A DNA stretch of 64,000 bases from the IMG/VR virus record IMGVR_UViG_3300008114_001632; one strand, given 5' to 3'. Of the stretch, positions 22,003 through 63,324 are shown in pieces. The position numbers were made by a program, and so were the translations under genes. Source of the DNA: a virus. Taxonomy: Duplodnaviria; Heunggongvirae; Uroviricota; Caudoviricetes. The stretch's first letter is position 1. Each line of letters opens with the position of its first letter. The notes below the pieces were generated by a model, which worked only from the letters and a program-made list of their open reading frames with translations, was not told where the DNA came from and did no database searches.

Positions 22003-22007
22003 TAAAT

Positions 22008-38894: not shown

Positions 38895-39401
38895 TTAGCT
38901 ATTCAAAACCTTAGCAACTGAGTTCATCACACTAGCAATACGACCAATGTCACGAAGCTGTTCAACAGTGTATCCTTCTGTCTTCAATGTCTCGTAATGT
39001 GCCTTAACACAGAAGTGACACTTGCCCACAATACTAGCAGCCAAACTAAATGCTTCAAAGTTTGCTTTAGTTGTTCCGCCGTGACTTGCAATAGCGTTCA
39101 TACGTAACTGAGCAGGCAATCCTTTGAGTGCAGGATCATCAGCCATCTCAACGAATGGGTACCACACGTTGTTCTGTGCCATAATGCTTGCGGCTGTCAT
39201 TGCTGACTCTGCATGTACAGGAGCATCTGCTAACAGGATGCTTAGTACCTTGCCGTTACCTGTTGCGGCTAGTGCAGCCACAGCACAACCCAAGGCTACA
39301 TCTGCGTCTAGTGTACTGCGTACTAAAACAGCATCAAGATTTAACTTGGTATCCTTTGCATAGTCTGGTAGTGCGCCTTTTATTGTTTCAATAAAACTCA
39401 T
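38895..39401 (-). CDS. ahpD: alkylhydroperoxidase AhpD-like (carboxymuconolactone decarboxylase family)
   Basis: CHFCVKAH CxxHxxxH motif. Confidence 0.7.
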   Translation of the reverse strand: MSFIETIKGALPDYAKDTKLNLDAVLVRSTLDADVALGCAVAALAATGNGKVLSILLADAPVHAESAMTAASIMAQNNVWYPFVEMADDPALKGLPAQLRMNAIASHGGTTKANFEAFSLAASIVGKCHFCVKAHYETLKTEGYTVEQLRDIGRIASVMNSVAKVLNS

Positions 39402-39811
39402 CGTGTTTGATCTCCTAAGATTTTATATCCACGTCCAGTAGGATGGATTCCGTCTGCACTCATATGGCTTTTTGGTCTAGGCAATATCACATCACCGTAT
39501 TCTTTGGCAATGCGTACAATAGCATCGTGCGGAATAGGTTTACGATCTTGTCCAGGGTCAATCCAAAATACTCGATCGCCCTTAACAGCTTCTCGCATTT
39601 TACGAAGTTCTGCTTCTGTCTTGACGCCTTTGTGATCATTGGCTCCTAGACTAATAATAATAGTTTTAGCAGGTTGTGAGGAGGCTTTAGACAAATAATC
39701 TTTGTTCCATTGCCAACTGTTCCATCCACCTTTTGAATAACTTACGCACTCTGGTCTAGCCATTGCTGTACCAACTGCAATGCTATCACCTACTATTAGG
39801 CAGTCTAACAT
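39398..39811 (-). CDS. SGNH/GDSL hydrolase
   Basis: IVGDSIA, GANDH, DGIHPT blocks. Confidence 0.6.
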   Translation of the reverse strand: MLDCLIVGDSIAVGTAMARPECVSYSKGGWNSWQWNKDYLSKASSQPAKTIIISLGANDHKGVKTEAELRKMREAVKGDRVFWIDPGQDRKPIPHDAIVRIAKEYGDVILPRPKSHMSADGIHPTGRGYKILGDQTR

Positions 39812-40350
39812 TATAGAGTCTCTCCCCCGACTGTGCGATTACAAGCGCAAAGTTCGCCAGTTTGTAGCGCATCCAATACACGAAGTGTTTCTTCTGGGCT
39901 ACGACCAACGTTTAAGTTGTTAACAGTAACGTGTTGGATTTCATTGTTTGGATCAACGATGAATGTTGCACGAAGTGCGGCACCTGCTGGTGCGTAGAAC
40001 ACGCCCAACTGTTCAATCAAGCTCAACTCGCCACGCTGTGTATCAGCAAATTGTGTATGAGTAATTTTCTTTAGATCTGCGTGAGCATTTTGCCAGCTAA
40101 CTTTGCAGAACTCATTGTCTGTGCTACCTGTGAGCAATACTGCATCGCGATCAGCAAAGTCTTGTGCCAATTTGTCGTAGGCTACAATTTCTGTAGGGCA
40201 AACAAATGTAAAATCTTTTGGATAGTAAACGATTACTTTCCATTTTCCTGCAAAACTCTCGTCTGTAATTTCAAAGAACGCATCTTCTGGTTGTCCTGGC
40301 TTAACACCTGTGACTGCAAATTTTTCTAGTTTATCACCAACTGTTTTCAT
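39811..40350 (-). CDS. ahpC: peroxiredoxin (AhpC/Tsa family)
   Basis: FTFVCPTEI peroxidatic Cys motif. Start set at MKTV (40348-40350, AAGGAG RBS). The Cys near the C-terminus is resolving-like. Confidence 0.85.
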   Translation of the reverse strand: MKTVGDKLEKFAVTGVKPGQPEDAFFEITDESFAGKWKVIVYYPKDFTFVCPTEIVAYDKLAQDFADRDAVLLTGSTDNEFCKVSWQNAHADLKKITHTQFADTQRGELSLIEQLGVFYAPAGAALRATFIVDPNNEIQHVTVNNLNVGRSPEETLRVLDALQTGELCACNRTVGGETL

Positions 40351-40544
40351 ATACTTCTCCTTAGTGTGTGTCATGAAATAATAATTATCAGTTTAAAATT
40401 ACCTCAGTGTAAATACTGAGTTTTCTACCTGAACAAGTTTATTATACATGTATTTACAATAGAAATCAACTACTATCCAGCAGTTTTTCATTGTATTTTT
40501 TAATAACGATCATTGAAGGAATCAATAAAGAAAAATAGCAGTCA

Positions 40545-41528: not shown

Positions 41529-41807
41529 ATGGATTTTCTAACATTAGTAGGAGATGTTGGATTTCCGATCGCAGGGGCACTAGCGGCCGGAATCTTTGTG
41601 TTTATCTCGCTGAAGTTTATTCTAGCGGGCGTTACTGGATCAGTAAAAACACTAAAAAACATTATTGCACAGCTTGATAATCGTGTACAAACTATGAACA
41701 ACGATCTAGTAAAGATCGATGCTCTCATGAGCTATGCACTAAAAGTAAAACCTAACGTAGACCGAATTGCGGCTAACGAAGGTAAGAACGATGCAAGGAG
41801 AGACTAA
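41529..41807 (+). CDS. small N-terminal-TM coiled-coil protein (paralog 1; holin/XhlA-like?)
   Basis: GFPIAGALAAGIFVFI TM helix then a coiled coil; plus strand. Confidence 0.45.
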   Translation: MDFLTLVGDVGFPIAGALAAGIFVFISLKFILAGVTGSVKTLKNIIAQLDNRVQTMNNDLVKIDALMSYALKVKPNVDRIAANEGKNDARRD

Positions 41808-42139
41808 TGTTAGATGATATTGCAAAAGCAATTAATGAGTATGGATTTCCTATTATTGCCGCAATGGGCATGGGATATTTTATCTACTTTATATGGAAGT
41901 GGGTAACTGAGGAAATAGATCCTATCATAGGTGAAACAATGGGTACGCTGATTAAGTTAGTAGATCGTGTACGAATGTTAGACAACGACATGATTCGCAT
42001 GAACACAAAACTAGCAATGGTGCTAGAACACAAAACAATGCTTGATCAACAACTTAATAACGATGATCGAGCAGAATTAGATTTTATTATTAACAAATAT
42101 CAAAGCCAAAGTCAGAAATTTGACAGTACAGGTAAGTAA
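41807..42139 (+). CDS. small N-terminal-TM coiled-coil protein (paralog 2)
   Basis: AAGGAG RBS; GFPIIAAMGMGYFIYF TM helix; LDNDMIRMN coil parallels paralog 1. Confidence 0.45.
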   Translation: MLDDIAKAINEYGFPIIAAMGMGYFIYFIWKWVTEEIDPIIGETMGTLIKLVDRVRMLDNDMIRMNTKLAMVLEHKTMLDQQLNNDDRAELDFIINKYQSQSQKFDSTGK

Positions 42140-42140: not shown

Positions 42141-44186
42141 TTATTTACTTGTCGCTATAAAAACGCCGTTCCAATCTTTAGGTAGAGTTTGAGTCTGCTG
42201 GAACTCACAACGCTCTATCCACATGTCGTAATACTTGTCCATTTTGCCGTCAAACTGACCTTTTAGTTGTTTACACATGCTAATAGCCGTACTAAACTTT
42301 TGTCCTCTGTATGCACCGTGCATTGATTCGTGTATTTTTTTAGCAACATGATACGTATCAGTGATATCATCTAATACTGTATAGATAGCAATTCCTACAC
42401 TCTTACCTTTTACAGCAAGATCATCAATCTTAAGGAAGAAGAAGTCATCTCCACAGCGATCAACTGTTGCGCCGCCAACTAGCAACAAGCATCCATACTC
42501 TTTACATTTACTTTCAATACGGGCAGCAGTACTAACAGCATCACCTAGTACATCGTAGCTGTGTCTTGCAGTTGATCCCATCTCTCCAATATATCCCAAC
42601 CCTGTATTAATACCAGCACCCATGCCAACGGCAGGTCTTCCTTGAGGTATAATGATTTCTTCATTAAATTTCTCCACTGCTTTAAGCATCTTCAATCCTG
42701 TGCGTACTGCTGTAGCAGGATGGTTCAAATCTTCAATAGGTGCATTATGTATATGCATACTAGCATCACCAATGTACTTAATAATCATACCGTCTGCATC
42801 TAGTACAGGTTGTGTAATGGCATCCATGTAGCCGTTCATTATTTTTGTAAGACCTGCAACGTCATCTCCAAAACTTTCACCTAAGGGTGTAAAGCCGCGT
42901 AAGTCTGAGAACAGTATACTGACTTCTTTCTTAACACCCTTCTTAATTAAGTCTGGATTTTCTTGTAACAGTCTAACTACTGTAGGGCTAGCATAGCCTG
43001 CAAATTGTTTCTTGATTGCTTGTTTCTGTAAGAACTCGCTTATAAACTTAATGCCATAAGCATGAAGCATAACCAGAACAAGCCCGACCACAATACCAGT
43101 TGAATCGAAGAGCCAACTAAACTGTGCATAAGCATAGGAGCCAGCGAATACACTAGTCCCAATAATAACAACACCTGAAATAATACCAACATAAGTCCAC
43201 CTTGTTAAGAATAATAATAGTATACCTGCTAATACTAGTGTTAAGATTTCTACACCGTTGGCATAATCTGGTCTCTGTATAACTATACCGTTAATCATTG
43301 TAGCAATAACACTAGCCTGCACAGCATGTGGGAATACAGCACCCATACTGGTTGGTACAGGATTACTGATACCAGCTGCGGTTGGACCAACAATAACAAT
43401 AGCACCATCTAGGTTTTTAGGCAACTCAAGTAAACTAACATTTTTACTTTGTTGACTCCAATCAATCCATACCCGACCTAAGTTATCTGTAGTAACAGGA
43501 CCAAACTTAGGTATACGCATTTTTTCAACACCGCCTTCAAAAAGTTTGATTTGAAAGGTTGAATCGCCAGCTGCTACTCGCAGTGTTTCCATAGCTATGC
43601 TAGGATAAAGTTTATCGCCAACTGCAACGATAAGAGGTAATCGACGATTCACTCCGTCAACTTCAGGCATAGTTGATACAATACCAATTCCTGCTGCTGA
43701 ATTTTCTAACTGCGGTACGTTAGCAATAAGGCCCGGGTATTGTACAATTTGATCTAACCACTCTGGCCCTAGTACAGCACTGCCTGGGTTGCGTGGTATA
43801 TTTTTAGTTTTATCAGCAGGCACTGATCCTAGTACTACAGGATATTGTTTAAGAGCTGAGGCAAGAGTTGAGTCGCCACCAGTGCGATCAGGCTCAGCCA
43901 TAAGCACATTGAGAACGACAAGGCCAGCACCACGATCATACAAATCTTTAATAATTTTAGCATATTCTGCCCTGGGTAATGGCCATTGGCCGTATTTGTC
44001 TAAAGCAGCTTCGTCTATGTTAACTGTATAGATGTTATTTTCTGTAGGTGCTTTAGAAGTAATTAATGTATCAAAGTAGCGTAGTCTTACACTTTCAACG
44101 AATGTAGGATCTGCTATTCGTATGCCTACTACTAACGCTAGAGTTAATAGAGCAGTCCATGGACTTAAAAGTATTTTTTTAATCAT
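42141..44186 (-). CDS. CHASE2 sensor-domain adenylate/guanylate cyclase (class III)
   Basis: N-terminal periplasmic domain plus TM helices. C-terminal cyclase block (FSDLRGFT...GDA, YDV.GD.V..A.R.E). Confidence 0.7.
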   Translation of the reverse strand: MIKKILLSPWTALLTLALVVGIRIADPTFVESVRLRYFDTLITSKAPTENNIYTVNIDEAALDKYGQWPLPRAEYAKIIKDLYDRGAGLVVLNVLMAEPDRTGGDSTLASALKQYPVVLGSVPADKTKNIPRNPGSAVLGPEWLDQIVQYPGLIANVPQLENSAAGIGIVSTMPEVDGVNRRLPLIVAVGDKLYPSIAMETLRVAAGDSTFQIKLFEGGVEKMRIPKFGPVTTDNLGRVWIDWSQQSKNVSLLELPKNLDGAIVIVGPTAAGISNPVPTSMGAVFPHAVQASVIATMINGIVIQRPDYANGVEILTLVLAGILLLFLTRWTYVGIISGVVIIGTSVFAGSYAYAQFSWLFDSTGIVVGLVLVMLHAYGIKFISEFLQKQAIKKQFAGYASPTVVRLLQENPDLIKKGVKKEVSILFSDLRGFTPLGESFGDDVAGLTKIMNGYMDAITQPVLDADGMIIKYIGDASMHIHNAPIEDLNHPATAVRTGLKMLKAVEKFNEEIIIPQGRPAVGMGAGINTGLGYIGEMGSTARHSYDVLGDAVSTAARIESKCKEYGCLLLVGGATVDRCGDDFFFLKIDDLAVKGKSVGIAIYTVLDDITDTYHVAKKIHESMHGAYRGQKFSTAISMCKQLKGQFDGKMDKYYDMWIERCEFQQTQTLPKDWNGVFIATSK

Positions 44187-44479
44187 TATATTGACGTACC
44201 TAGTTTAATTTTAGATTCTGTGCCTACTCCTAGTATGCAACTAGTTTCAGGAGTCATTTTAAGTAATGTCCAAGATCCTTCTTTTTCATTGATCCATAAA
44301 CTGTAGGCACTATTATCACTAGAATGCTTTCCGCCCCAGGTTAATATTTCTTTATAATTTTCCCCAAGGCTTTTTATGATCTTTTCAGTACTGTCACACA
44401 ACAAGGGATAATCATATCTAAATTGTGCATTGACTGTGCTAGACAAACAAACTAATAAAATTAATAATATTTTTCTCAT
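44186..44479 (-). CDS. small secreted protein
   Basis: Start moved to MRKILLILLV (GGAGGT RBS); signal peptide. Confidence 0.4.
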   Translation of the reverse strand: MRKILLILLVCLSSTVNAQFRYDYPLLCDSTEKIIKSLGENYKEILTWGGKHSSDNSAYSLWINEKEGSWTLLKMTPETSCILGVGTESKIKLGTSI

Positions 44480-44940
44480 GGTCTTTTTACCTCCACATCG
44501 TGTAGTGAGCCATCTTCTTGTGTCCAATTTGGCAACAGCTTATTAAAAATACGACCATATACTCCTGCCCTACCGCTAGACCCTTGTACATCATATTCTA
44601 TCACTTGAATCTTATCGTCGTATGTTATTAAGAAATCTTTTATTATAGCAGTGATAGCTGATATAACTTGTGCGGAGTTACCAGTTCCGGTCATGCTAGT
44701 TTTGCCGTCACCGTTAAAACTAATTTCCCAGTAACCACGGTAGTCAACTTCTTCATTTTCTTCTTCATCATCGTAGCCTACTACATCACGGTCTGCATCT
44801 ACATGATCGTATTCTGAATTCTTTGCTTTGAATTCATACAGCACATTGCCCACAGTAAATTCAGCAGTGGCCTGACGCTCACTGCGATAAGTCCATTTCC
44901 ACGGCACTGAAGTTGCCGCCATTAGTTCATTTATTTTCAT
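44476..44940 (-). CDS. hypothetical acidic protein
   Basis: ORF. Confidence 0.4.
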   Translation of the reverse strand: MKINELMAATSVPWKWTYRSERQATAEFTVGNVLYEFKAKNSEYDHVDADRDVVGYDDEEENEEVDYRGYWEISFNGDGKTSMTGTGNSAQVISAITAIIKDFLITYDDKIQVIEYDVQGSSGRAGVYGRIFNKLLPNWTQEDGSLHDVEVKRP

Positions 44941-45491
44941 TTTCTTTTGTCCGATGTTGGACCTTTAGGCATGTAATCCTTACCATAACTAATACGACTG
45001 CCTGTGATAGTTTCTAGTGCAACGTGTAATGCTGTGCCGCTTAGATGTTTACGTAACCACTTCTCTGCTAGATTATTAATAATCTTTTCATTAGCATAAA
45101 CACGCCCGCTACCTTTTGTACGATCGTGTACATAAGCATGACATGCTTCGTGAGCTGCAATCGCAACATCACGAGCAGCCTTGCTTTCTAAATTTGGAAT
45201 ATTAATACTGCCGCCAGGGCCAGATTCTTCGGTATCTTTAAACATTGGTGTTTCGTTACTGGGGTAGACATAATACATGCCGGGCTCTAAGTCATCATCG
45301 TCGTCTGTTACTCGACTTCTACCTAATATATCTTGAATAGCTTCGTATGCAGTCCATAGCGTCGGTGCCGGCGCTCCACCAACTTTAGTAGTAGGCAACA
45401 TTGGCTTATCTTCTGGATCAAAGTCACCGTACCGCTGACGCAATTCATCGTCGCTAGCTTCTGCTTCTTGGATTATTTCAAGTATTTTCAT
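44937..45491 (-). CDS. putative metallopeptidase (HEACH HExxH motif)
   Basis: IAAHEACHAYVHD. Confidence 0.35.
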   Translation of the reverse strand: MKILEIIQEAEASDDELRQRYGDFDPEDKPMLPTTKVGGAPAPTLWTAYEAIQDILGRSRVTDDDDDLEPGMYYVYPSNETPMFKDTEESGPGGSINIPNLESKAARDVAIAAHEACHAYVHDRTKGSGRVYANEKIINNLAEKWLRKHLSGTALHVALETITGSRISYGKDYMPKGPTSDKRK

Positions 45492-45549: not shown

Positions 45550-46671
45550 TTAATTTTGTGTTACAATAAGAGTGCTGGTACTACCTTTATTCACGTTTTG
45601 AATAATAGTCTGCCCATCTTGAATTAAGGTAAATGTAATGTTCTTTGTTGTATCAAATGTTGCTGTGGTATTGTGTGTACCTGCCTTGTATAATGTAACC
45701 TTAGTTTGATCATCATTAAAATAATACAACAAGCCTAATGGTTTGTTTGCTGAGTATCCTGGTAATATTGGATTGTCTAATTCATTGCTCAACAAACTAG
45801 CATTTTGTCTATCAAGTTCATTTAATTCATTAAATGCTAATAGGTCTGCATTTAAATCATTTCTATCTAACTCATTTTTTTTATCTAAAGAATTTTCATC
45901 TAATGCACTAAACTTTAACAAATCGATATCTAGTTCGTTAAAATCTAAAATAGATTTTTCTTTCTTAGCTAGGCCAGCCTGTTCTGTATCTGCAACTTCT
46001 TTAGGTTTGCTAATGATCAACATGTTGTTAATGTTTGCTTGGTCTAATTTTACAATTGTAGGTTCTGTAGGTACTGTGTAAGCACTGTTAACTAATGTAG
46101 CTTGATATGGTACATCTAATATCACAACACCTGCTAGATTTCTAACTTCGATAGCACCAGTAACACAGCCTCCGTTTGGAGAACAACTAGGAAGTAGTAC
46201 TACAAGACTGCGTCCTAATTCATCTACTGTCATAGAAAAATCAGTGCCTCGCACAGCAATAGTAGCGGTAGGTGTTTTGATAGCAACCTGTTGCGGATTA
46301 TTTTTTGCTATTTGTCCGCTTGCATAACGAGCTGTGCCTAAGGCCATATTGATGGCTAATTTACCAGAACCTTTTTTTGGATCATAGACAAAATCATCTA
46401 TGATCATTTTACTGTGTTCTGTAAGTTTAACTGTAGTTTTATCTTCAAAGGTTAATTCAGCTTTGGCTTTAGCTGTGGAGATGGTGTCATTCATCTCCAC
46501 ACCCGTGTTTAGACTAGAAGGAATACTTTTCTTATTCCTTACAATTTCTGTAGGCCCAGTCTGTTCAGTAACTTTACCAACACCGGCAAAGCTATTAATC
46601 GGACTGAGTAACAATAACGTTATTATTAGAACCGTTGCTGGTAATAACTGCATTTTTAGCGAATACTCCAC
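45550..46671 (-). CDS. secreted FecR-domain-like protein
   Basis: Signal peptide; IAVRGTDFSM FecR-like motif. Confidence 0.4.
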   Translation of the reverse strand: MEYSLKMQLLPATVLIITLLLLSPINSFAGVGKVTEQTGPTEIVRNKKSIPSSLNTGVEMNDTISTAKAKAELTFEDKTTVKLTEHSKMIIDDFVYDPKKGSGKLAINMALGTARYASGQIAKNNPQQVAIKTPTATIAVRGTDFSMTVDELGRSLVVLLPSCSPNGGCVTGAIEVRNLAGVVILDVPYQATLVNSAYTVPTEPTIVKLDQANINNMLIISKPKEVADTEQAGLAKKEKSILDFNELDIDLLKFSALDENSLDKKNELDRNDLNADLLAFNELNELDRQNASLLSNELDNPILPGYSANKPLGLLYYFNDDQTKVTLYKAGTHNTTATFDTTKNITFTLIQDGQTIIQNVNKGSTSTLIVTQN

Positions 46672-47284
46672 TCTGTGTTAGTGTCACTGCATTGGCAAGT
46701 TGATTAGTGCCACTGCCTGAAACTGTTATTTCTCCATTATGTAAACCTACACCTGATGCTGTATGTGTTACATTGTTGTAATCGCCATTAATATTAATTT
46801 TACTCTGCACAACGCCACCACTTAACGTCTGTATAGTATTGTTGCTATTACCTGTAATTTCAGATCTAATAATACTAGCATTACAACTTGAACTTAATGC
46901 AGTACCACAACCGATAGTTTGATTGTTGTTGCTACCATCTGCTGAAACTACTATGGTAGATCCTGTTCCATTAGATTCATTGTTAACAATCATACTAAGT
47001 GTATTGCTAGCACCAATTTGACTTATAGTTACATTATTGAGATCGCCACGAATTATAGCAGCATCATCAACGTTGCCGTTGCCACCAACATTACCGTTTA
47101 CTGTGTTGCCTGCTCCTGTTTGTGTAATAGATACAGATGTATTATCACCGATCTGATCAACATAAACATCGTTGGCCCACGCCCCCGATGACAGCATTCC
47201 AGCCATCATTAGAATTGTAAGTACTTTTCTCGACAACTTACCACCGCCTGTGATTCTTTTTTTCATTTTTCGCTCCAGATGCAA
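46595..47284 (-). CDS. curlin-repeat (CsgA/CsgB-like) secreted protein
   Basis: Signal peptide; repeated S-x5-Q-x-G-x-x-N blocks such as SVSITQTGAGNTVNGNV, NVTISQIGASNT, AVTLTQSGVFAKNAV. Confidence 0.55.
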   Translation of the reverse strand: MHLERKMKKRITGGGKLSRKVLTILMMAGMLSSGAWANDVYVDQIGDNTSVSITQTGAGNTVNGNVGGNGNVDDAAIIRGDLNNVTISQIGASNTLSMIVNNESNGTGSTIVVSADGSNNNQTIGCGTALSSSCNASIIRSEITGNSNNTIQTLSGGVVQSKININGDYNNVTHTASGVGLHNGEITVSGSGTNQLANAVTLTQSGVFAKNAVITSNGSNNNVIVTQSD

Positions 47285-47345
47285 GTTATGTTTGTTAATG
47301 CATCTAATTTTAAGTTTAATAAAGACTTTCTCCTATGCTTAACTC

Positions 47346-48593
47346 TCATTTTGGTCTGTGTTCTGAAAGCACGTCAGCTCGCACATACCCCTTACGCTTC
47401 TCTGCGTCTACTACATAATGCCACCCCTCCGGACCTGGAGAAATGATATTAAATTCTGTTCCCTTTTTCAATTGCCATGTTCGTTGACTTTTTTCATTTG
47501 GTTCTTTGTATACAAACGAATCTTCTTTAAGATATCTAGAACTCCACAATTGAGCGGGTGGCTTAACTACTGGAGCAGTATTTGTATTTGTTTCTACTTT
47601 TTCTACAACTACTAAATGTTCTGGTTGTATAGGAACTATCCTTGTTATTTTTTCTGCTTTGGGCTCGACTGTTTGGCTTGCTCCATTGCTTTCTTGCTTG
47701 ACGGGCTCGATCGGTGCGGGTGGTAAGGGCTCTGGGGCTCCTTGGGGTGCTTGTGAGGTTTGTGGTTGAACCAGCTCATCTTTCTTTTCCTCCTTTACTA
47801 CAGGCACTTCTTGTGTTACAGATTTTTTAAATCTCCACATTCCTTTCTTTTCGCCTTCAATGATCATGTCATATACTGCTTGTTCTATAGCAACACGAAC
47901 AGCATATGTTGTAGGTTCATTTAGAGCCTGCCCGTTTTCTAATTCTAGTGCTTTGGTTCCAGCATCAACAAATCTTAATACGCCAACGTTATGTTGTGTG
48001 CTATAGATAGTTTTGCTCACAGCATTAGAAATTAATACTTCCCCACTGTTTACACTTACTAGTCTAAGACTAATTACAATTTCATCTACACGATATTGTT
48101 GACTTCCGCCAATACCTAAGAATCGTGCGCCGTTGCCGCCACTGCGTATGTTGCTGTCGTAGCCAATGATACCACCTTCGATCATAATTCCTGCCACAGT
48201 CATTGGCTTTAATGGTCTAGCATCTTTACCTTCATAAACCTCGCGTTGATTACGTATCAACTGTCGCTCTTTAATAAGGTTATCTAATCCCACACGCTCT
48301 ACAACTTTAAACCAATTTTTTGAGTCTTGAAGTGCTTTGATTAAAAATACTTCAGATCCTTGTGTCACTGCCTTTGAAAACACAGCTAACCTATCATTAG
48401 GTTTCATTTGTCCTGTCTTGTCTGTGAATCCGTAAACTGCAATGGTCATTGGAGGACCGTCTAACTGTGGTATTTTATTAGTAAGACTCTCTCTTGGTGT
48501 TAGAGCCACAGCATCTTCCCTAGCCGCATCCATGTGTATGGTGGCGCATCCTGAAAGAACAGTGACAAGTAACAATGATAATATTAATTTCAT
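47346..48593 (-). CDS. csgG: curli production assembly/transport lipoprotein CsgG
   Basis: LSGC lipobox; CsgG-family core. Confidence 0.75.
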   Translation of the reverse strand: MKLILSLLLVTVLSGCATIHMDAAREDAVALTPRESLTNKIPQLDGPPMTIAVYGFTDKTGQMKPNDRLAVFSKAVTQGSEVFLIKALQDSKNWFKVVERVGLDNLIKERQLIRNQREVYEGKDARPLKPMTVAGIMIEGGIIGYDSNIRSGGNGARFLGIGGSQQYRVDEIVISLRLVSVNSGEVLISNAVSKTIYSTQHNVGVLRFVDAGTKALELENGQALNEPTTYAVRVAIEQAVYDMIIEGEKKGMWRFKKSVTQEVPVVKEEKKDELVQPQTSQAPQGAPEPLPPAPIEPVKQESNGASQTVEPKAEKITRIVPIQPEHLVVVEKVETNTNTAPVVKPPAQLWSSRYLKEDSFVYKEPNEKSQRTWQLKKGTEFNIISPGPEGWHYVVDAEKRKGYVRADVLSEHRPK

Positions 48594-49039
48594 TAAAATG
48601 CAAAGCTCGCTATAGGTACAGTAATTTCTGTTCGGCTACCGTTGGCCTCAATAATAGTTAGAGTTACTTCTGTGGCCGATTTAACCCAACTGATATTAGT
48701 TCCTTGAAAGTCCATAGTTCCGCTTGTTCCTGTACCTTCAGCAAACATTTGATCTGCTAATTGTTTAGACAATTGTGCGTAGATACGTGCTTCTACGTTA
48801 ACAAGGAATTTACTTAGATTTGTTTGTTTTGCAGCAGCTTCTGCCTTAGCTATAGCAGCCAGTTCTTCGCTCTTAATTTCTTTCTTTTTAGATTCTTCTA
48901 ATTGATGGATTGACAAGACGTGCTGACTGAATCCATTGCCTGGTATAAAGGCTGGACTTTGAAAATTATGTATTAGCTCTGTAGCGAATGCACTACCTGC
49001 AAACACTAGCATTGCCCCCAATGCTGTGATGTATTTCAT
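48593..49039 (-). CDS. csgF: curli assembly protein CsgF-like
   Basis: Signal peptide with FQSPAFIPGNG N-terminal CsgF-like motif; immediately upstream of csgG. Confidence 0.55.
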   Translation of the reverse strand: MKYITALGAMLVFAGSAFATELIHNFQSPAFIPGNGFSQHVLSIHQLEESKKKEIKSEELAAIAKAEAAAKQTNLSKFLVNVEARIYAQLSKQLADQMFAEGTGTSGTMDFQGTNISWVKSATEVTLTIIEANGSRTEITVPIASFAF

Positions 49040-49154
49040 GACCCTCTCCTCGGTTACCCCTTATACTATTTAACGAGAGGTGAGGAAATATTCTATGCTT
49101 AGTTAATAATAATTAATTAACTTAGGTCAATAATAGGCTGAAAGAAATTTATTT

Positions 49155-50816
49155 TTACGACTTAGCTGCCATATAACCTGGAGTTGGAGTTTGTTGATCG
49201 TCATTCCAGTTAAATCCTGCACCCATTGTTACAGTCTTTCCTAATTTCTTAACTAGGTCATTACCGTCTTTAATAATACTATAATCTAAAGTATCTGTTC
49301 TTAAAAACATAATTGTTGTTATGCCGTCTGCTAGGTGATAGCTTTCGTATGCTATTTTAGTATAGGCTCTATTCATTTTCATCCAATCTACAGTGCCGTC
49401 TTGCTCAACAGCTGAAGCAATTAATTTATCAGCATTTTTAATAGAATCAAAGTTTAACACTAGTGATTTGATAGTAGTATGAAATAGTTCAAATGTTTTA
49501 TCAAAATTACTGTATGGCTCGAGTACTTCTTCGTTCAGTGCCTGAAACCCTTTTGGATTCCAATTGTACTTATTGCCTAATTTTGCTTTGCCGTTTGTAA
49601 TGTTGTATTGATCGCCATTAAATTTGTTAACTGCAACTTTTACCCTAGCGCCTTTTTTGTCAGTAGTAAAAATAGATGCGTTCTTAGGAGCAGTTGCTAC
49701 AATATTAGCAATACCTTTCCTCCAAAGATCCCATCCCGCAGTTGCTTTTGCAATACTCTTACTGTTTAATCTACCGCCTGTAGATGCACTGGCCTTAATT
49801 TCTACTTCAACATCGCCTACTTTTAAGTCACCTTTTTTAGCTTTCTCAGCTGGGTTTCCCATCATTGATAAGGCCATTTCTCCTGGGCCAATTGCCCCAG
49901 ATGTTTTACCTGGCGAATAACTAAAAATATTCTGTTCTACAAATATATCAAACAATTTTTTATATTTAGGATTTACATAGTTTTTAATATTTCCGCGATC
50001 GGTACCGATAACTGATAACATGTTAATTACATCGCCTTTTACGCAGGCTGCTAAGAACTGTTTAATCTCAATTGGTGATGCGTTGGCCTCTTCTTGAATA
50101 TCTACAATTTTTCCAAACAAGGCTTGTTTTAATGTTTTTGTAAATTCAGCTGCGTTTACTGCTTTTTTCTTTGCCTGTGTTTTTTCTTTAGAAGACATTT
50201 TTTCTAAATTTTCTTCTTGATAACCTTGTACTTTGTTTCCTAAAGCTACAAGGTAAACACTTACTTCTTTAACAAAACTTTCAGCTTCTTGTTGTTTTTG
50301 TACAGCATCGTCTTTTGCTAACTGGAGTTCTTCCACTTGTTTAGTTAAAGCGTCTAATTGTTGTCTAAACGGTTTAATAAAATTTTTCTTTATTTTCTCA
50401 TCAATATCTGAAGCTTCAACCGCCTTTATTTGTTGCTTTAGTGTATCGATAGTAGAAATAATTGCGCTGCTAGCACCTTCTGCTTCTAAAATACTCTCTG
50501 TAGACATTCTAGCAGGTGCAGGTGCAGGTTGTGCAGGTGCAGGTTGTGCAGGTGCAGGTTGTGCAGGTGCAGGTTGTGCAGGTGCAGGTTGTGCAGGTTG
50601 TGCAGTTTGTATCTTAGCTTTGGCTAAAAATGCACTTATTGATGATGACAAATTTTTTAATTTTGTCGCAACAGATGCTTTTACATTTTCTTTTTCTGGA
50701 GGAAGATTTCCAAGAAAAACGCCAATTGTATCTAGATCGTGTATAGCTTTTTGTGCTTCAAGATCAGATTCAACTGCTTCATGTACAATAGTTTTTCCAA
50801 AGTCGTAAAATCGCAT
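49155..50816 (-). CDS. hypothetical protein with (QPAPA)n linker
   Basis: 553 aa; internal 15-bp tandem DNA repeat encoding AQPAP x5. Confidence 0.4.
   Translation of the reverse strand: MRFYDFGKTIVHEAVESDLEAQKAIHDLDTIGVFLGNLPPEKENVKASVATKLKNLSSSISAFLAKAKIQTAQPAQPAPAQPAPAQPAPAQPAPAQPAPAPARMSTESILEAEGASSAIISTIDTLKQQIKAVEASDIDEKIKKNFIKPFRQQLDALTKQVEELQLAKDDAVQKQQEAESFVKEVSVYLVALGNKVQGYQEENLEKMSSKEKTQAKKKAVNAAEFTKTLKQALFGKIVDIQEEANASPIEIKQFLAACVKGDVINMLSVIGTDRGNIKNYVNPKYKKLFDIFVEQNIFSYSPGKTSGAIGPGEMALSMMGNPAEKAKKGDLKVGDVEVEIKASASTGGRLNSKSIAKATAGWDLWRKGIANIVATAPKNASIFTTDKKGARVKVAVNKFNGDQYNITNGKAKLGNKYNWNPKGFQALNEEVLEPYSNFDKTFELFHTTIKSLVLNFDSIKNADKLIASAVEQDGTVDWMKMNRAYTKIAYESYHLADGITTIMFLRTDTLDYSIIKDGNDLVKKLGKTVTMGAGFNWNDDQQTPTPGYMAAKS
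50515..50600. repeat. 15-bp tandem repeat (GCAGGTGCAGGTTGT)n inside a CDS
   Basis: 5-6 perfect copies. Confidence 0.7.
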
Positions 50817-50836: not shown

Positions 50837-51532
50837 TTATACGATGTTAGGGAACAGCATGTCTGTGCAAAACTTATCAACGTCTGCTTCATTTAAACCT
50901 AAACTTTTCATTACGTTAGGAGTATGGGGATTCTGTCGCTGATTGTGACAGTACCAATTCTGTGCTTTGATGGTTTCATCAACACCGCATGTATTTTGGA
51001 ATCCGCTGATTTCATCAAAATATGCATGAAGATTGTTAAGTGCTATGTTTATAATTGCAACTGCTTCTTCTTCGGTGTTTACGTTGCCGGCAGCTAACAT
51101 TTTGTCTGTAAAGATATTCTTAGCCCACTGAGGCAACTCTCTTTGTTTTTTTGGAATAAAATTTTCTACACTATCTTTGTAGCCTAATATCATAGGATGA
51201 TCTGCACCACCGCTTGACGGACTAAAATCGTGGAATGCTCCAGTCATCTTATTTTTGCCGGCAATAACATCAAAGCCGTATATAGGTCCACCGTTGGTTA
51301 GTTCTGGAAACACGCATACATGCATCATCCATAGACCTTTAGTGACTCTAGCATCAACTACATCTATGTGAGCTCTGCGTACATACTGATTAGACCATAC
51401 CCTATTAATCCATCCTGAATCGGGTTGATTAAAGTGTTCCATTCCATCTTCGTGTACTTCATTAGCCTGTTGGTCAAAAACTGCTATGATGTCGTCTTTA
51501 CACTTGATCAGATGATTCCAAATAATGCTCAA
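50837..51532 (-). CDS. ferredoxin-dependent bilin reductase family (PebS/PcyA-like)
   Basis: Length and motifs fit the HY2/FDBR family; overlaps the heme oxygenase gene as in cyanophage ho1-pebS pairs. Confidence 0.5.
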   Translation of the reverse strand: MSIIWNHLIKCKDDIIAVFDQQANEVHEDGMEHFNQPDSGWINRVWSNQYVRRAHIDVVDARVTKGLWMMHVCVFPELTNGGPIYGFDVIAGKNKMTGAFHDFSPSSGGADHPMILGYKDSVENFIPKKQRELPQWAKNIFTDKMLAAGNVNTEEEAVAIINIALNNLHAYFDEISGFQNTCGVDETIKAQNWYCHNQRQNPHTPNVMKSLGLNEADVDKFCTDMLFPNIV

Positions 51533-52070
51533 TGTCTAACTCCATTAGTTCTTGAAATAATTTAGTGCTTGACTCAAATACATACTTTGCTTCTTCGGCC
51601 ATGCTGTCTTTTGTCTTAGCTCTAATTAGTTCTTTGAGCTTATCTTTGTCTGTATTGAACTGATACATTCGACCTTGACCAGGAACCATCTTTGCAATCA
51701 TTTGGCCGCCGCTTAAATCTCCCATGTGTAGTACATAGATATGTGCCATAAGTGCGTCAGCATCAATCATTATGTTTCGCATGTGATTGATGTATTCTAT
51801 AGTACTAGGTACTATAACTGGCTGAACATCTTTTGTCCAAAGTTCTGCAAAATCTTCTTCAATTTTCAGTTTACGTCTGATATCTGGTAAATCACTGAGT
51901 AGGCCTTGTGCGCCTGCAAGTGCTTCTAATAGATCATATTTTTTATGTTGATTCCACAAGTATGTGGCATATAGTTCGGGATTAATTTTACCGCTTACGA
52001 TAACTTTTACAAATGCTTGGCGTTCAGCATTTGTATGTTGTTCTTTTGTAAGTTCTTTTAAATTGCTCAT
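51498..52070 (-). CDS. ho1: heme oxygenase
   Basis: HMGDLSGGQ matches the HO-1 YLGDLSGGQ motif; helical HO fold length. Confidence 0.75.
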   Translation of the reverse strand: MSNLKELTKEQHTNAERQAFVKVIVSGKINPELYATYLWNQHKKYDLLEALAGAQGLLSDLPDIRRKLKIEEDFAELWTKDVQPVIVPSTIEYINHMRNIMIDADALMAHIYVLHMGDLSGGQMIAKMVPGQGRMYQFNTDKDKLKELIRAKTKDSMAEEAKYVFESSTKLFQELMELDIEHYLESSDQV

Positions 52071-52372
52071 TCTTTTTCTAACCTAATCTGCAAGGGAAAT
52101 CCCTTGTCTCTTGAAGCTACAGTAGTTTCTACACTTTTTTGTTCTGCAATTTCGTATGAGTATATACCAACTACTGCACTACCTTCGCTGTGAATTTGAA
52201 GTGTAAGTGCTTCTGCACTAGTTTGGCTATGTTTAAAAGTTTTCACTAAAACTTCTATTACCCATTCAATTGGGGTAACATCATCGTTAATAAAAATAAC
52301 TTTGTATTTGGCCGGCTCTTGAGTGATCTGTTTAATTTTTTCGTCAATTTGGATATCTGCTAAAGTACTCAT
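52067..52372 (-). CDS. clpS: ClpS adaptor protein
   Basis: YKVIFINDDVTPIEWVIEVL matches the E. coli ClpS core. Confidence 0.85.
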   Translation of the reverse strand: MSTLADIQIDEKIKQITQEPAKYKVIFINDDVTPIEWVIEVLVKTFKHSQTSAEALTLQIHSEGSAVVGIYSYEIAEQKSVETTVASRDKGFPLQIRLEKE

Positions 52373-57962: not shown

Positions 57963-58328
57963 TTACTTAAAGAATATTAAAGCCATCATCATAGCTTGGA
58001 CAATAAATCCAATACCAATAGTGACTAAATTTAACATGTCTTTCTGTACTGCGGCTTTAATAAACATCAGTACCAATCCAGTCCAAACTAACAGTACTAG
58101 ATCCACAGGTGGTAAACTGTCTGTTAATCCACTCATCACAGCCAGTAAACTAGGAATAGTTGAAGCATGTAATATTACAATACCTAGCCACCCAAAAGTT
58201 TCTGCTGATACTTTAGAGATTGAAGCAGAGATTGTTTCTTTAAATTGTTCAATATTAAAATTTTGCATATATTCTTTCAATCGTTCTAGGTTTTTCGTTA
58301 TAAAAGATGTGAGTTCCAATTTTTCCAA
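57963..58328 (-). CDS. small multi-TM membrane protein
   Basis: Three predicted TM helices. Confidence 0.4.
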   Translation of the reverse strand: MEKLELTSFITKNLERLKEYMQNFNIEQFKETISASISKVSAETFGWLGIVILHASTIPSLLAVMSGLTDSLPPVDLVLLVWTGLVLMFIKAAVQKDMLNLVTIGIGFIVQAMMMALIFFK

Positions 58329-58863
58329 TTTTTTCTAACTTCCATTGTGGGTTAACATAATCTGCATGATAATACAGGGCTGTTTTTAATACGTCAAGTT
58401 TAAAATTTTCCAATAATACTTTTTTGGCTACAGCATAGCTTTCTTTGTAAGCTTCTGAGTTTATTGGTCTGTTACGATGTGTTGAATCACAATACCATGA
58501 GAACTGGCATATGGTTCTTATTGTTGTAGTCTTTTGATAAACTACACCGCAAACGTCTTTTGGAAACGCTGGGTGCGCAACACGGTTTAGGGTAACTTGT
58601 GCTACGGCTACCTTTCCTTCAAAAGGCTCATAACCTGCTTCTCGATAAATGTTAAGTGCTAAACATTCGAGTTCTTTTTCTCTAGTCTTAATTGTTACAA
58701 CATCTGGGAAACTTACTCCCGCTGACATTTTGAGAGCTTGAAACTTATTGCTTGTGATGTGTTGCAGAATAACTACTGCAAACAACAAACCTACTGCAAG
58801 GGCTAATGCCCTGATTGTCTTTTCCATAAGTCCTCCTTTGACTTGGTGTGATACAAAATTCAT
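58255..58863 (-). CDS. SleB/CwlJ-type cell-wall hydrolase (possible endolysin)
   Basis: Hydrolase_2 motifs (AVAQVTLNRV, VVYQ, QFSWYCD); N-terminal TM/signal anchor. Confidence 0.6.
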   Translation of the reverse strand: MNFVSHQVKGGLMEKTIRALALAVGLLFAVVILQHITSNKFQALKMSAGVSFPDVVTIKTREKELECLALNIYREAGYEPFEGKVAVAQVTLNRVAHPAFPKDVCGVVYQKTTTIRTICQFSWYCDSTHRNRPINSEAYKESYAVAKKVLLENFKLDVLKTALYYHADYVNPQWKLEKIGKIGTHIFYNEKPRTIERIYAKF

Positions 58864-59155: not shown

Positions 59156-61093
59156 TCAAACAATTTGGGTTATGTTAGCCTGTCCAAATCGGAGGCGGCG
59201 TCTCCAAAATACTCTCTCAACAAATTGAGCATCGCTCATAGTAGATTCGTTAAAGTCAAACTTTAGCGTAGTAGGTACTTTGTGTAACTCACTGGAGTGA
59301 TCGTTTAAATATTGCCAAACATTGTGTTGGTATTGTTGAGTTCGTGGATAAGAATTGCGTTCTTTGAGTGGCACGGTAAGATGTCGTTGTAGATCCATAA
59401 GGTCCTGATGCAACTCTTGCCCAAGTTCAAATTCTTTTACAAATTCATCTAACAAGTCATACCATTTGGCAACAACCTCAGGTTGAAGTGTTAGTATCAT
59501 GCGAGTATGAAATATAATACTGTTGCCATAAAGTTTGATTCCAGGTATTCCGCTGTCAAGTGTGCAACGCCCGTGTTTGAACCAATCACATAGTACATCA
59601 ATCTGTTGTTGTTTCAGTATACGATACCATTCATGCTGTTGTGCCTGTTTAAATAATTTGGTATACATTTCCTCATAGGAAACATTTTTGTAACGATTTA
59701 AGAATCTAGTAACTAAGTTGCTGTAACCGCCCACGTGCCAAGTAAACAAATTCCAGTTGAATATACTAGCTTCAATGATGTCATCAAAAGACATATGGGC
59801 AGTACTAATTACAACATCTATGCTCTCAGCTGTAACCCCAGTATTTTCATGAGCCGACGGACTAAAATAATCATAAATTTTTGTAGTCTTGATGTCGTAG
59901 ACTTCTTTTTGGACTCGATTTAATTCTGCATTTTCTAGTACTTGGCAGTAGTAGATATCGATATCGTTGTGCATACCTAGGTCTAACAGTTTCCAAAGAT
60001 TGTTTTGCCAAGACTCAAGTGTTTCTCGCGGCAACCCCATGATCAATTCGGTACCAATGGGTACACCTTTTGCTCGTCCAATTTCTAGTATTTCAGCAAT
60101 GTTGTTGCTTTTAAGATTTTTGCGTTTGATAGCATCAAGAGTATTATCGTCAAAAGTTTGTAAGCTAATCTTAAGACCTGTTGTAGGTCGTAGAGTTTTT
60201 TTGACCAGCAGTTCTACAATGTCAATTACTTCTTGATTTTGATTTTTAGCAAACGATTGAGAGATACCAGTTGGAGCACCATACTGACGCTGTAGTTCAA
60301 TAAATCGCTCTACAATTGATCGATCTCGCTCAGGAAAAATACCAAAATTAGCATCAGCAACGTGTACAAAATCTATGCGGTTACGACTCATCCATTCAAG
60401 TTCAGCATATACACGCTCTATAGTAAACTTTTTAATTTTGCTTAGTGTTAAACTACCCCAGTCACAAAATGTACACTGATACGGACAACCACGATTGGTT
60501 TCCAGTGTAGCTGACCAGTTAACCTTGGGATTATCTATTAACAGTTGATCAAAGGTGCCTGTTAGATAAGGACTGGATAAAATTGATAAATCATCAACTC
60601 GTGCTGCCTGACCAGTATCTAGTACGCTACCATTTTGATTTATTAGCACACCTGGCACATGATCAAAGTTCTCAATGTTACGCAGGATTTCAGTAAAAGT
60701 AATTTCACCTTCGTTTTTAATAATAGCATCAATCCAAGGATACTTAGAAAATATTGCAGGGTCTGACACAGCCGGCTCTGGTCCTCCAAAAATAATTAAA
60801 CAATTAGGATTGCGTAATTTAAGAGCCTCAGCTAAGTGTAAATTATATTGTAGATTCCAAACGTAGGTACTAAAGCCAACTACTGAATCGTTTTTTAATT
60901 GTTCAACTACTTGCTCTATTGGGTCACGTCGCCAGATTAATTGATTTAATTCAAACTGCGAATCAATGTCTGGTTGAGATTGAGCGTGTGCCCAAAGACA
61001 TCCAACTGTGTATGGTAAATGAAACGAATTGAGTTCTTCTGGACCTACTTGGAAATTTACTTGTACAAAACTAACTTTATGTTTTTCATTCAT
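59156..61093 (-). CDS. B12-binding-domain radical SAM protein
   Basis: CPYQCTFCDW CxxxCxxC motif with an N-terminal B12-binding-like region. Confidence 0.7.
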   Translation of the reverse strand: MNEKHKVSFVQVNFQVGPEELNSFHLPYTVGCLWAHAQSQPDIDSQFELNQLIWRRDPIEQVVEQLKNDSVVGFSTYVWNLQYNLHLAEALKLRNPNCLIIFGGPEPAVSDPAIFSKYPWIDAIIKNEGEITFTEILRNIENFDHVPGVLINQNGSVLDTGQAARVDDLSILSSPYLTGTFDQLLIDNPKVNWSATLETNRGCPYQCTFCDWGSLTLSKIKKFTIERVYAELEWMSRNRIDFVHVADANFGIFPERDRSIVERFIELQRQYGAPTGISQSFAKNQNQEVIDIVELLVKKTLRPTTGLKISLQTFDDNTLDAIKRKNLKSNNIAEILEIGRAKGVPIGTELIMGLPRETLESWQNNLWKLLDLGMHNDIDIYYCQVLENAELNRVQKEVYDIKTTKIYDYFSPSAHENTGVTAESIDVVISTAHMSFDDIIEASIFNWNLFTWHVGGYSNLVTRFLNRYKNVSYEEMYTKLFKQAQQHEWYRILKQQQIDVLCDWFKHGRCTLDSGIPGIKLYGNSIIFHTRMILTLQPEVVAKWYDLLDEFVKEFELGQELHQDLMDLQRHLTVPLKERNSYPRTQQYQHNVWQYLNDHSSELHKVPTTLKFDFNESTMSDAQFVERVFWRRRLRFGQANITQIV

Positions 61094-62735: not shown

Positions 62736-62737
62736 AG

Positions 62738-62764
62738 AAAAGCACCCGAGGGTGCTTTCTGGTA
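62738..62764. terminator. bidirectional terminator AAAGCACCCGAGGGTGCTTTCT
   Basis: Hairpin plus T-runs on both strands. Confidence 0.65.
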
Positions 62765-63120
62765 ATTTCTGTTACGAGGTATTTCCTACCCTAAGCAGTG
62801 TTTAGGCTGCTAATGCGTATTCGCTTGAATTTGCGTTTACTTGATTTGCTTGATTTACGGTCATCGCCTACCGTGTTGCCGTCTCCATTATCTCACCCTG
62901 TCGAAACCATGTCAGGCCCATCATAAGAATACTATTTTTCAATTTTGTGATAAACACGAACATTATTATTGTACATATAAACAACCCAGCATACGCTTAC
63001 AATTATCGTTATAGTAGCAAAAATTAATCCTTTAATCATTTTAATTTCCTTATGGTGGACCTGGCGGGAGTCGAACCCGCGTCCAGAATGCCTTCACTTT
63101 GAAGGGATTACAACAATTCC
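62763..63120 (-). ncRNA. ssrA: circularly permuted (two-piece) tmRNA (ssrA)
   Basis: Acceptor piece ends GCGGG-TTCGACT-CCCGC-CAGGTCC-A-CCA at 63053-63085. Coding piece begins GGGCCTGACATGGTTTCGACAGGG at 62902, pairing with G3:U70. Tag ORF GCAAACGCAAATTCAAGCGAATACGCATTAGCAGCCTAA = ANANSSEYALAA* at 62802-62840. Terminator at 62738. Confidence 0.6.
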
Positions 63121-63324
63121 TTAAGCAGGCTGAATATTGCTAGCCTGTTGTCCTTTCATACCCATTGTGACTTCAAATCTTACGCTCTGACCTTCTTGTA
63201 GACTTTTGAAGCCACCTGAATTAATCTGAGAGAAATGAGCAAAAAGGTCTGCTCCGCCGCTATCCGGTGTAATGAATCCAAAACCTTTGGCGTCGTTAAA
63301 CCATTTTACTTTTCCTGTTACCAT
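63121..63324 (-). CDS. cspA: cold-shock protein CspA family
   Basis: [15 protein letters not shown]1 and VFAHFS RNP2 motifs; long 5' UTR. Confidence 0.85.

Follow-up and report, generated by a model that had tools for sequence, protein, structure and literature searches.

What would a tailed phage do with the genes of a curli secretion system, and how much of such a system does it carry? The question is raised by a 64,000-nucleotide stretch (the window) of the IMG/VR Caudoviricetes record IMGVR_UViG_3300008114_001632, in which a first-pass annotation, made from the letters alone, had placed a curli-like module of CsgG, a CsgF-like protein, a curlin-repeat protein and a FecR-domain protein at positions 45550-50816. 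We find in this uncultured large phage a full set of curli (type VIII) secretion genes of bacterial type, linked to a predicted envelope sensor that would make cyclic AMP (cAMP). Our reading, to which we give a probability of roughly 0.6, is that the module is a virus-encoded type VIII secretion system (T8SS) of the alphaproteobacterial kind together with a FecR-fold/CHASE2 adenylate-cyclase sensor pair. The idea of phage-borne curli-like secretion is thus supported, but it is not new, having been published between 2020 and 2022.

The unit is longer than had been described. Its CsgG, CsgF, curlin-like and FecR genes were correctly grouped, but it reaches down to 42141, the end of a CHASE2 adenylate-cyclase gene that had been left out although it belongs to the unit, and with a further small gene to 41807. 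The five core open reading frames (ORFs), encoding CsgF, CsgG, the curlin-like protein, the FecR-fold protein and the CHASE2 cyclase, all lie on the minus strand. Read downward from 49039 the order is CsgF, CsgG, curlin-like, FecR, proteins of 184, 154 and 97 amino acids (aa), and the cyclase. Because the stop and start codons of these co-directional genes overlap (TAATG or ATGA) at four junctions, everything from 49039 down to 42141 can be read as a single operon. Its G+C content (GC) is 0.36-0.40, the same as in the rest of the window. A scan for sigma-70 promoters and terminators found no more than background (37 sites against 35 expected), and a motif scan met the T4 late-promoter motif TATAAATA less often than expected; nothing can therefore be said on transcription. 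No ORF between 41.8 and 50.8 kb matched CsgE, CsgC/CsgH or CsgD in Pfam or NCBIfam. Absence of CsgE, CsgC and CsgD is typical of alphaproteobacterial T8SS (PMC9599517), and none of these proteins is needed for the core definition of CsgG, CsgF and a subunit.

The two channel proteins named in the first-pass annotation are borne out by hidden Markov model searches, both passing their Pfam thresholds easily. CsgG matches PF03783 at 183.4 bits (gathering score 20.8, E 4.5e-54), and its residues 4-266 align to the solved E. coli CsgG in a PDB search (E 2.5e-50). Inspection of the sequence shows a lipobox (LSG/C). The CsgG domain (48-254) is followed by a linker rich in Pro, Gln and Glu (~262-355) and a C-terminal SH3b domain (~360-410). 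In the window protein the SH3_3 and SH3_4 models fall just under the Pfam threshold; run on 19 related CsgG C-termini, SH3_4 finds 15 and SH3_3 14 (best E 1.4e-9). The tail is not present in CsgG of the cultured phages HTVC008M and Melnitz or of the bacterial operons described below. In solved structures the CsgG C-terminus faces the periplasm, and SH3b domains often bind peptidoglycan, so the phage CsgG may well be tethered to peptidoglycan. In the constriction loop F56 of E. coli is retained, while Y51 is replaced by N and N55 by V. The protein scores 186 bits with the NCBI CsgG equivalog model, under its cut-off of 505, and is therefore a family member and not an ortholog-grade match to enterobacterial CsgG. 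Identity with HfaB, the CsgG-like holdfast anchor, was considered and rejected (NF037935, 45.5 bits, cut-off 300).

CsgF matches PF10614 over its full length at 60.2 bits (gathering score 25.8, E 3e-16) and also phrog_35372 (E 1e-41), although phmmer of CsgF against the PDB found nothing. It starts with a Sec-type signal peptide, recognized by eye as were those of the curlin-like and FecR-fold proteins. In the mature N-terminus F26, P29 and F31 (F-x-x-P-x-F) are invariant across the phage, bacterial and E. coli CsgF. The csgF stop codon overlaps the csgG start (TAATG).

The third gene had been annotated as a curlin-repeat secreted protein. The ORF is real and has a signal peptide, but the repeat call is marginal: over 46595-47284 there is a single match to Curlin_rpt (PF07012) at 20.4 bits, 0.3 bit under the gathering score of 20.7. 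Precomputed PF07012 matches occur in about half of the best 120 homologues. Since homologues start at ATG 47266 (MKKRITGGG...), this most likely is the start, giving 223 aa, and not TTG 47284. In the mature protein (192 aa) Asn makes up 17%, Gly 13% and Ser 12.5%; it is also rich in Thr and Val, and holds units of the type Q-x-G-x-G-N, for example VDQIGDNTSVSITQTGAGN. As to the beta-solenoid, whose prediction had been suggested as a check, an AlphaFold2 (AF2) model is all-beta with stacked strand-turn-strand repeats (pLDDT 63, pTM 0.61), but it found no significant fold match, the Foldseek list containing only beta-helix proteins. Because its gene immediately follows csgG at 59 of the 65 related viral loci, because it has a signal peptide and because it is under purifying selection (dN/dS 0.11, see below), the curlin-like protein appears to be the most plausible substrate of the channel.

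The neighbouring FecR-domain secreted protein had also been correctly recognized (PF04773, 46 bits, gathering score 24). Homologues again place the start, most likely at ATG 46653 (367 aa) and not at GTG 46671. The FecR domain comes directly after the signal peptide and holds two invariant Cys; an acidic linker rich in Leu and Asp and a small C-terminal beta domain follow. An AF2 model from a 42-sequence alignment is confident for residues ~24-200 (pLDDT ~85) and of low confidence in the C-terminal half. Foldseek matched this model to 4m0n (E 1.5e-5) and to 6ovk, the C-terminal cell-surface signalling domain (CCSSD) of PupR (E 1e-4), with a root-mean-square deviation of ~3 A over ~145 columns; the matched structures are periplasmic domains of FecR-type anti-sigma factors. 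The protein itself has no anti-sigma domain and no transmembrane (TM) anchor, and Pfam and PHROG searches found no extracytoplasmic function sigma factor and no TonB-dependent receptor or transducer in the module. We therefore rejected an iron-citrate-type anti-sigma regulator, and the 'iron regulator' label of the literature is not supported for this protein. FecR-domain proteins do adjoin CHASE2 sensors in unrelated systems: in Sinorhizobium meliloti the CHASE2 cyclase gene cyaD1 lies beside the FecR-domain gene smc02177 (PMC5498481), and in Burkholderia an operon of a LysM-FecR protein and a CHASE2 histidine kinase controls biofilm (PMC5192318). By this analogy the FecR-fold protein would be the periplasmic partner of the CHASE2 domain.

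The 681-aa cyclase has strong matches to CHASE2 (PF05226, 136 bits) and Guanylate_cyc (PF00211, 56.2 bits) and a full-length match to phrog_35576 (E 2e-192). An N-terminal TM segment leads into CHASE2 (15-322), a TM block (~307-383) and the cyclase domain (419-596); judged from the hydrophobic segments at 2-30 and 307-383, CHASE2 would be periplasmic and the cyclase domain cytoplasmic. A motif table shows that the metal-binding Asp are both retained, as are the pair that specifies adenine (Lys470 and the adenine-type Asp) and the Arg, with Asp in FSDLRGFT, Lys and Asp in KYIGDA and the adenine-type Asp in YDVLGD. The transition-state Asn is replaced by Ser (VSTAAR instead of VNxAxR, residues ~547-559), a change found also in Melnitz and many phage loci. 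The phage cyclases form two clades, one with YD(V/I)LGD..VS and one with the canonical Y(T/S)(C/V)LGD..VN, and those of the bacterial operons are all canonical (VNLASR).

Is this gene set a conserved unit or an accident of one contig? A scan of IMG/VR with CsgG gave 65 viral loci on contigs of up to 364 kb, in which genes were surveyed by tblastn. CsgF, CsgG, curlin-like, FecR and cyclase stand in one order in 47 of the 47 loci with enough sequence, and the 17 loci without a cyclase match all end no more than 2.4 kb from the last module gene found. The order is also the same in further phage contexts and in the cultured phages HTVC008M and Melnitz. Together with upstream genes for Hsp20, ClpS, heme oxygenase and bilin reductase the module is syntenic in more than 20 related viral contigs: about 29 loci have ClpS and Hsp20 upstream, and 23 of those also have heme oxygenase and bilin reductase. 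Since contigs of 160-364 kb are among the loci sharing ClpS and Hsp20, the window is part of a jumbo-phage lineage. This lineage is very abundant in metagenomes, where the FecR homologues form more than 6,000 clusters, the best 120 of them all 83-91% identical to the window protein. Pairwise ratios of nonsynonymous to synonymous substitution (dN/dS) against relatives are 0.07-0.17 for all five core genes, lowest for FecR (0.07), which indicates purifying selection; with dS at 1-2, near saturation, the values are approximate.

Between FecR and the cyclase lies a slot whose content varies. In the window it holds the three small genes, and in Melnitz a second curlin gene. The 184-aa and 154-aa proteins have no Pfam or PHROG match and occur in two and one of the 65 loci, respectively; the 184-aa gene has an ATGA overlap with the next gene. 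The 97-aa gene, whose ORF can be extended to TTG 44527, adjoins the cyclase gene in six of the 65 loci, and from its junctions (ATGA and TAATG) it appears translationally coupled to the cyclase gene. A 191-kb relative (L005) has in this slot (13104-16598, plus strand) a gene for a 1,164-aa protein with a signal peptide, an F5/8-type-C domain and Thr/Asn/Gly-rich repeats, whose C-terminus resembles, by eye, an autotransporter beta-barrel. Another locus (L068) has a 708-aa protein and further genes there. The slot seems to collect surface proteins.

At the other end, convergent with the cyclase gene and abutting it, is the gene for a 110-aa protein whose N-terminal part has a hydrophobic segment and whose tail is coiled-coil-like. 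Its carriers include 46 of the 65 viral loci, and it also accompanies the module in HTVC008M and Melnitz, whose records are the only ones with this protein among 50,697 phage records; we did not find the gene in bacterial operons. The protein is probably the short 'HK' (histidine kinase) of an earlier study, which is sometimes duplicated and stands before csgF (PMC9599517). As a histidine kinase it is unsupported, having no Pfam match at E<=0.01.

If the module is of the alphaproteobacterial kind, is there a chromosomal counterpart? We scanned one genome per species with aligned phage FecR proteins and obtained 11 loci. Seven are contigs of 34-40% GC in bins of metagenome-assembled genomes (MAGs) with inconsistent taxonomy (Flavobacteriaceae, Pelagibacter, Rhodobacteraceae, Legionellales, Pirellulales, Bacteroidetes and Parvibaculum). 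Five of these (L069, L071, L072, L074 and L075) carry the phage-specific 110-aa gene, and the other two (L076 and L077) are short contigs without it. On their GC and the 110-aa gene in five, we rejected all seven as bacterial operons; they are probably mis-binned phage.

The remaining four loci are two Henriciella MAG contigs (52-53% GC, one of 397 kb) and two Caulobacteraceae MAG contigs (54-57% GC). In three of the four, CsgG, FecR and the CHASE2 cyclase stand in phage order; on the short Henriciella contig (L078) only the curlin-like, FecR and cyclase genes are visible. CsgF was detected by tblastn in both Caulobacteraceae loci, and in the longer Henriciella contig (L079) CsgF and a 504-aa curlin-like protein were recognized from ORF translations and from Pfam on a near-identical TARA scaffold. 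The flanks are housekeeping genes: TonB-dependent receptors and an FAA hydrolase in Henriciella/Hyphomonas, methylmalonyl-CoA mutase and acyl-CoA dehydrogenase in Caulobacteraceae, and among these loci also an alanine-racemase-like gene and an amidohydrolase. Identical Henriciella/Hyphomonas FecR proteins lie on contigs of up to 705 kb from many marine samples, in the same Pfam-annotated neighbourhood. In the literature FecR and cyclase genes are not part of bacterial T8SS operons. The shared operon and its housekeeping flanks argue that in these Alphaproteobacteria they are part of a chromosomal T8SS operon, the evidence being MAGs and metagenome scaffolds and not closed isolate genomes.

A bolder proposal, which we hold tentatively and think somewhat unlikely, is that the T8SS and the FecR/CHASE2 cyclase form one ancestral 'sensory secretion' operon of Hyphomonadales/Caulobacterales that phages captured whole. 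If so, cAMP synthesis would respond, through the FecR-fold protein in the periplasm, to the state of the surface fibre or the CsgG channel, and the jumbo-phage lineage, not recognized before, would have added the SH3b tail to CsgG, gaining a new host surface structure with a cAMP read-out.

How would the phage module work? The best-supported reading, which we infer from these data, is that a working T8SS puts a curlin-like fibre on the infected cell and is coupled to a cAMP-making FecR-fold/CHASE2 sensor. CsgG would be lipidated, form an outer-membrane channel and be held to peptidoglycan by its periplasmic SH3b tail, with CsgF capping the channel through its conserved N-terminal peptide. The curlin-like protein, exported by Sec, would cross this channel and, once outside, polymerize into a surface fibre of beta-solenoid or amyloid-like type. 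As a ligand-binding or adaptor partner of CHASE2, the FecR-fold protein, soluble in the periplasm, would let an envelope or secretion-related cue be turned into cytoplasmic cAMP that reprogrammes the infected cell. The pay-off is likely a changed cell surface, bringing exclusion of other phages or aggregation of host cells.

Several points weigh against this. The fibre, secretion and cAMP roles are inferred for every phage version; a cAMP receptor in the host is assumed, and only gene neighbourhood suggests that FecR and CHASE2 interact. The window protein's curlin assignment lies just below the Pfam threshold and its AF2 model is of only moderate confidence. Foldseek of that model against the PDB gave nothing significant (best E 0.17, CsgA fibril E 2.5) and is not usable as confirmation, and hhalign to E. 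coli CsgA covers a single 22-aa unit with a probability of 9%. The constriction residues Y51 and N55 of CsgG are not conserved, and Ser in place of the transition-state Asn could lower or alter cyclase activity. Cultures infected with Melnitz showed no clumping (PMC9004378).

Some of these points favour other explanations. The strongest competitor, unlikely but the best of those remaining, makes the module mainly a signalling device: the curlin-like and FecR-fold proteins would be an antenna for an external or envelope cue (for example cell density, other phages or surface contact), the CHASE2 cyclase would report it as cAMP that steers the infection programme, and secretion would serve only to place the antenna. 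FecR and the cyclase are conserved with the module as strictly as CsgG and CsgF, and dN/dS is lowest for FecR. In other systems FecR-CHASE2 pairs work as signalling units (PMC5192318, PMC5498481), and the CHASE2 cyclases of S. meliloti answer an external protein signal via the outer-membrane protein NsrA (PMC13001267). On the other side the ligand is purely hypothetical, HTVC023P-type podophages often are without the cyclase (PMC9599517), and the window lineage has the catalytic Asn-to-Ser change. This explanation overlaps the fibre-and-sensor reading without excluding it, and the two are not separable with present data.

Slightly less probable is that CsgG and CsgF have been repurposed as a gated outer-membrane pore that times or executes lysis (a 'pinholin/secretin') and that no fibre is made. 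Such a role was proposed for Melnitz from structure models and synteny (PMC9004378); the cultures without clumping, the differences from E. coli at Y51 and N55 of the constriction and the weak similarity of the curlin-like protein to CsgA would all fit it. A pore for lysis leaves the conserved substrate, FecR and cyclase genes unexplained, however, including a secreted curlin-like gene under purifying selection right after csgG in nearly all loci. Moreover, CsgG as an outer-membrane lipoprotein cannot depolarize the inner membrane, which is the trigger of holin-type lysis. The same gene set is a chromosomal operon in bacteria that do not lyse, and the window has an endolysin-like gene of its own.

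A third proposal, improbable in our view, sees an ungated CsgG channel as an import or permeability route for nutrients or cofactors during infection. It was suggested in two earlier studies (PMC7029224, PMC9599517) and agrees with the lack of a CsgE homologue among the module ORFs. But alphaproteobacterial T8SS operons, both those published (PMC9599517) and the bacterial operons found here, also are without CsgE, so its absence is ancestral in this type and not a phage adaptation, and an import channel leaves the conserved CsgF, curlin-like, FecR and cyclase genes unexplained.

The weakest alternative, that the region is bacterial DNA (a recent host insertion, which the first-pass annotation had named as a refutation, a chimeric assembly or a decaying functionless passenger), is effectively refuted: the closest cellular homologues are indeed alphaproteobacterial operons and several related contigs were deposited in bacterial MAG bins, but GC is uniform, the neighbours are phage-typical, over 20 viral contigs of 160-364 kb have syntenic flanks, the cultured HTVC008M and Melnitz carry the module, all frames are intact, identity to the bacterial versions is only 34-48%, the low-GC 'MAG' contigs with the 110-aa gene are most likely mis-binned phage, and the synteny, gene order and dN/dS of 0.07-0.17 conserved across viral contigs lead us to reject a recent insertion.

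Other features of the window are collected in Table 1. Directly upstream of the module is the 553-aa protein with a (QPAPA)n linker that had been described along with it. The stretch is real, encoded by a perfect 15-nt tandem repeat of 5.5 copies (50516-50598), but the protein is not a module member, being found in four of the 65 related viral loci. Neither Pfam nor PHROG matched it; it has ~200 uncharacterized relatives (50% identity clustering), and a Pfam search with ten of these gave no useful information. L005 and L068 have a very distant analogue in this slot; the window protein and that of L005 share a weak PD-(D/E)XK-like motif (GPGE...GD..VEIKAS, E 0.11). From its sequence it appears to be a cytoplasmic bystander of an uncharacterized family. 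Beyond it are the heme oxygenase and bilin reductase genes, carried although the phage does not look like a cyanophage, and beyond heme oxygenase come ClpS, Hsp20 and a GMP-reductase/IMPDH-like gene.

The rest of the window is that of a phage. PHROG matches include DNA ligase, an endonuclease, a virion or tail-fibre-like protein, a ClpP-type head maturation protease and endolysin. No cultured phage has a DNA ligase more than 36% identical to that of the window, and the sole match in a nucleotide search of the region against phage genomes was a 200-nt stretch of HTVC008M csgG. The window has both a ClpP-like protease and ClpS, to which related contigs add DnaK/Hsp70 and ribosomal protein S21. 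An array at 14745-22083 holds 28 tRNA genes and the GOLLD RNA, in which a tRNA-Asn gene (20085-20157) is embedded. The type of the tmRNA hints at a betaproteobacterial host, as for Melnitz.

Table 1. Features of the curli-like module and of its surroundings in the window
Feature	Coordinates	Strand	Remarks
CsgF homologue	48593-49039	-	148 aa; PF10614 60.2 bits; phrog_35372
CsgG outer-membrane lipoprotein	47346-48593	-	415 aa; PF03783 183.4 bits
Curlin-like repeat protein, secreted	46595-47266	-	223 aa; Curlin_rpt 20.4 bits
FecR-fold protein, secreted/periplasmic	45550-46653	-	367 aa; PF04773 46 bits
Acidic protein, variable slot	44937-45491	-	184 aa; without signal peptide
Acidic protein, variable slot	44476-44940	-	154 aa; without signal peptide
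Small secreted protein	44186-44479	-	97 aa; signal peptide MRKILLILLVCLSSTVNA
CHASE2 receptor class III adenylate cyclase	42141-44186	-	681 aa; CHASE2 136 bits
Phage-specific module companion	41807-42139	+	110 aa; phrog_18771 E 3.5e-29
553-aa protein	49155-50816	-	(QPAPA)n stretch; without signal peptide
Ferredoxin-dependent bilin reductase	50837-51532	-	overlaps heme oxygenase gene
Heme oxygenase	51498-52070	-	overlaps bilin reductase gene
ClpS adaptor	52067-52372	-	upstream of module
Endolysin-like gene	58255-58863		
B12-binding radical SAM protein	59156-61093	-	645 aa; PF02310 and PF04055
tmRNA, two-piece (permuted)	62736-63172	-	tag ANSSEYALAA; best fit betaproteobacterial RF01850, 166.9 bits
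AhpC-like gene	39811-40374		
CMD-family gene	38895-39401		
SPFH gene	31598-32392		
ClpP-like protease	22948-23565	-	phrog_94 'head maturation protease', E 6.5e-47
GOLLD RNA, full-length	19756-20220	-	RF02032, 201 bits (gathering score 150)
QueD-like gene	4061-4624		

How does the module compare with known systems? It resembles enterobacterial curli (csgBAC/csgDEFG) in its CsgG channel lipoprotein, in the F-x-x-P-x-F of CsgF and in a Sec-secreted repeat protein rich in Gln, Asn and Gly. It differs in having a single curlin-like gene instead of a CsgA/CsgB pair, in that CsgE, CsgC and CsgD were not detected, and in its link to FecR and the CHASE2 cyclase, which enterobacterial curli operons are without. 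Those last two genes recall instead CyaD1/SMc02177 of S. meliloti and the 'BiofilmReg' system of Burkholderia, where a secreted FecR-domain protein is encoded beside a CHASE2 transmembrane sensor; in S. meliloti the output domain also is a class III cyclase. These pairs have no link to CsgG or CsgF and are not phage-borne, and in Burkholderia the partner has LysM and the output is a histidine kinase.

The Hyphomonadaceae/Caulobacteraceae operon is closer: it has these five genes in identical order, their frames overlap or lie close together, and the cyclase has the same domain architecture. Besides the low identity, it differs from the window in its GC of 52-57% and its housekeeping flanks, in a curlin-like protein that is longer (500-504 aa) or split in two genes, in a CsgG of 273-291 aa that is without the SH3b tail, in having no 110-aa companion, and in the VNLASR of its cyclase. 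Henriciella/Hyphomonas is a lineage with named and described species, in which the function of the system might be studied genetically. A bacterial operon with FecR and the cyclase also moves thinking about their function from iron regulation to a FecR-fold/CHASE2 envelope sensor.

Closest are the phage modules already described. A 'curli operon' was reported in pelagimyophages, with 'sibling capture' as its proposed role (Zaragoza-Solas et al. 2020, PMC7029224). CsgGF of Melnitz was modelled and given a proposed role in the timing of lysis (Buchholz et al. 2022, PMC9004378). A 2022 mSystems study found CsgA/B-like proteins, FecR, adenylate cyclase and a short 'histidine kinase' in myo- and podo-pelagiphages, and described the global distribution of the pelagiphage T8SS, its expression in metatranscriptomes and its alphaproteobacterial affinity (PMC9599517). 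HTVC008M (a SAR11 phage), Melnitz (a phage of OM43 Methylophilales) and HTVC023P-type podophages have the same genes in the same order as the window, the published order being a small hydrophobic protein, CsgF, CsgG, curlin-like, FecR, the variable slot and the CHASE2 cyclase. The Melnitz proteins share 42-59% and the HTVC008M proteins 36-51% of their amino acids with those of the window, except that the curlin-like protein shares 28-30%. The carrier differs from the pelagiphages and Melnitz in being uncultured, with relatives of 160-364 kb, 28 tRNAs, GOLLD RNA and a beta-type tmRNA. The window CsgG, with its linker and SH3b tail, has 415 aa where HTVC008M and Melnitz have ~280; the slot holds three small genes where Melnitz has a second curlin gene; and the 110-aa gene, which in the published phage modules comes before csgF, here follows the cyclase on the opposite strand.

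What is new, then, is the jumbo-phage carrier lineage, the SH3b tail on CsgG, the Asn-to-Ser change of the cyclase and the five-gene operon on alphaproteobacterial MAG contigs. The basic published picture is unchanged, and we regard the finding as useful and not surprising. Aggregation ('sibling capture'), superinfection exclusion and lysis timing have been proposed as roles of such modules in the most abundant marine bacteria, and there are few other cases in which a virus may equip its host with a wholly new envelope machine. Pelagiphages are not the only carriers: an abundant lineage of large uncultured phages keeps the module in conserved synteny.

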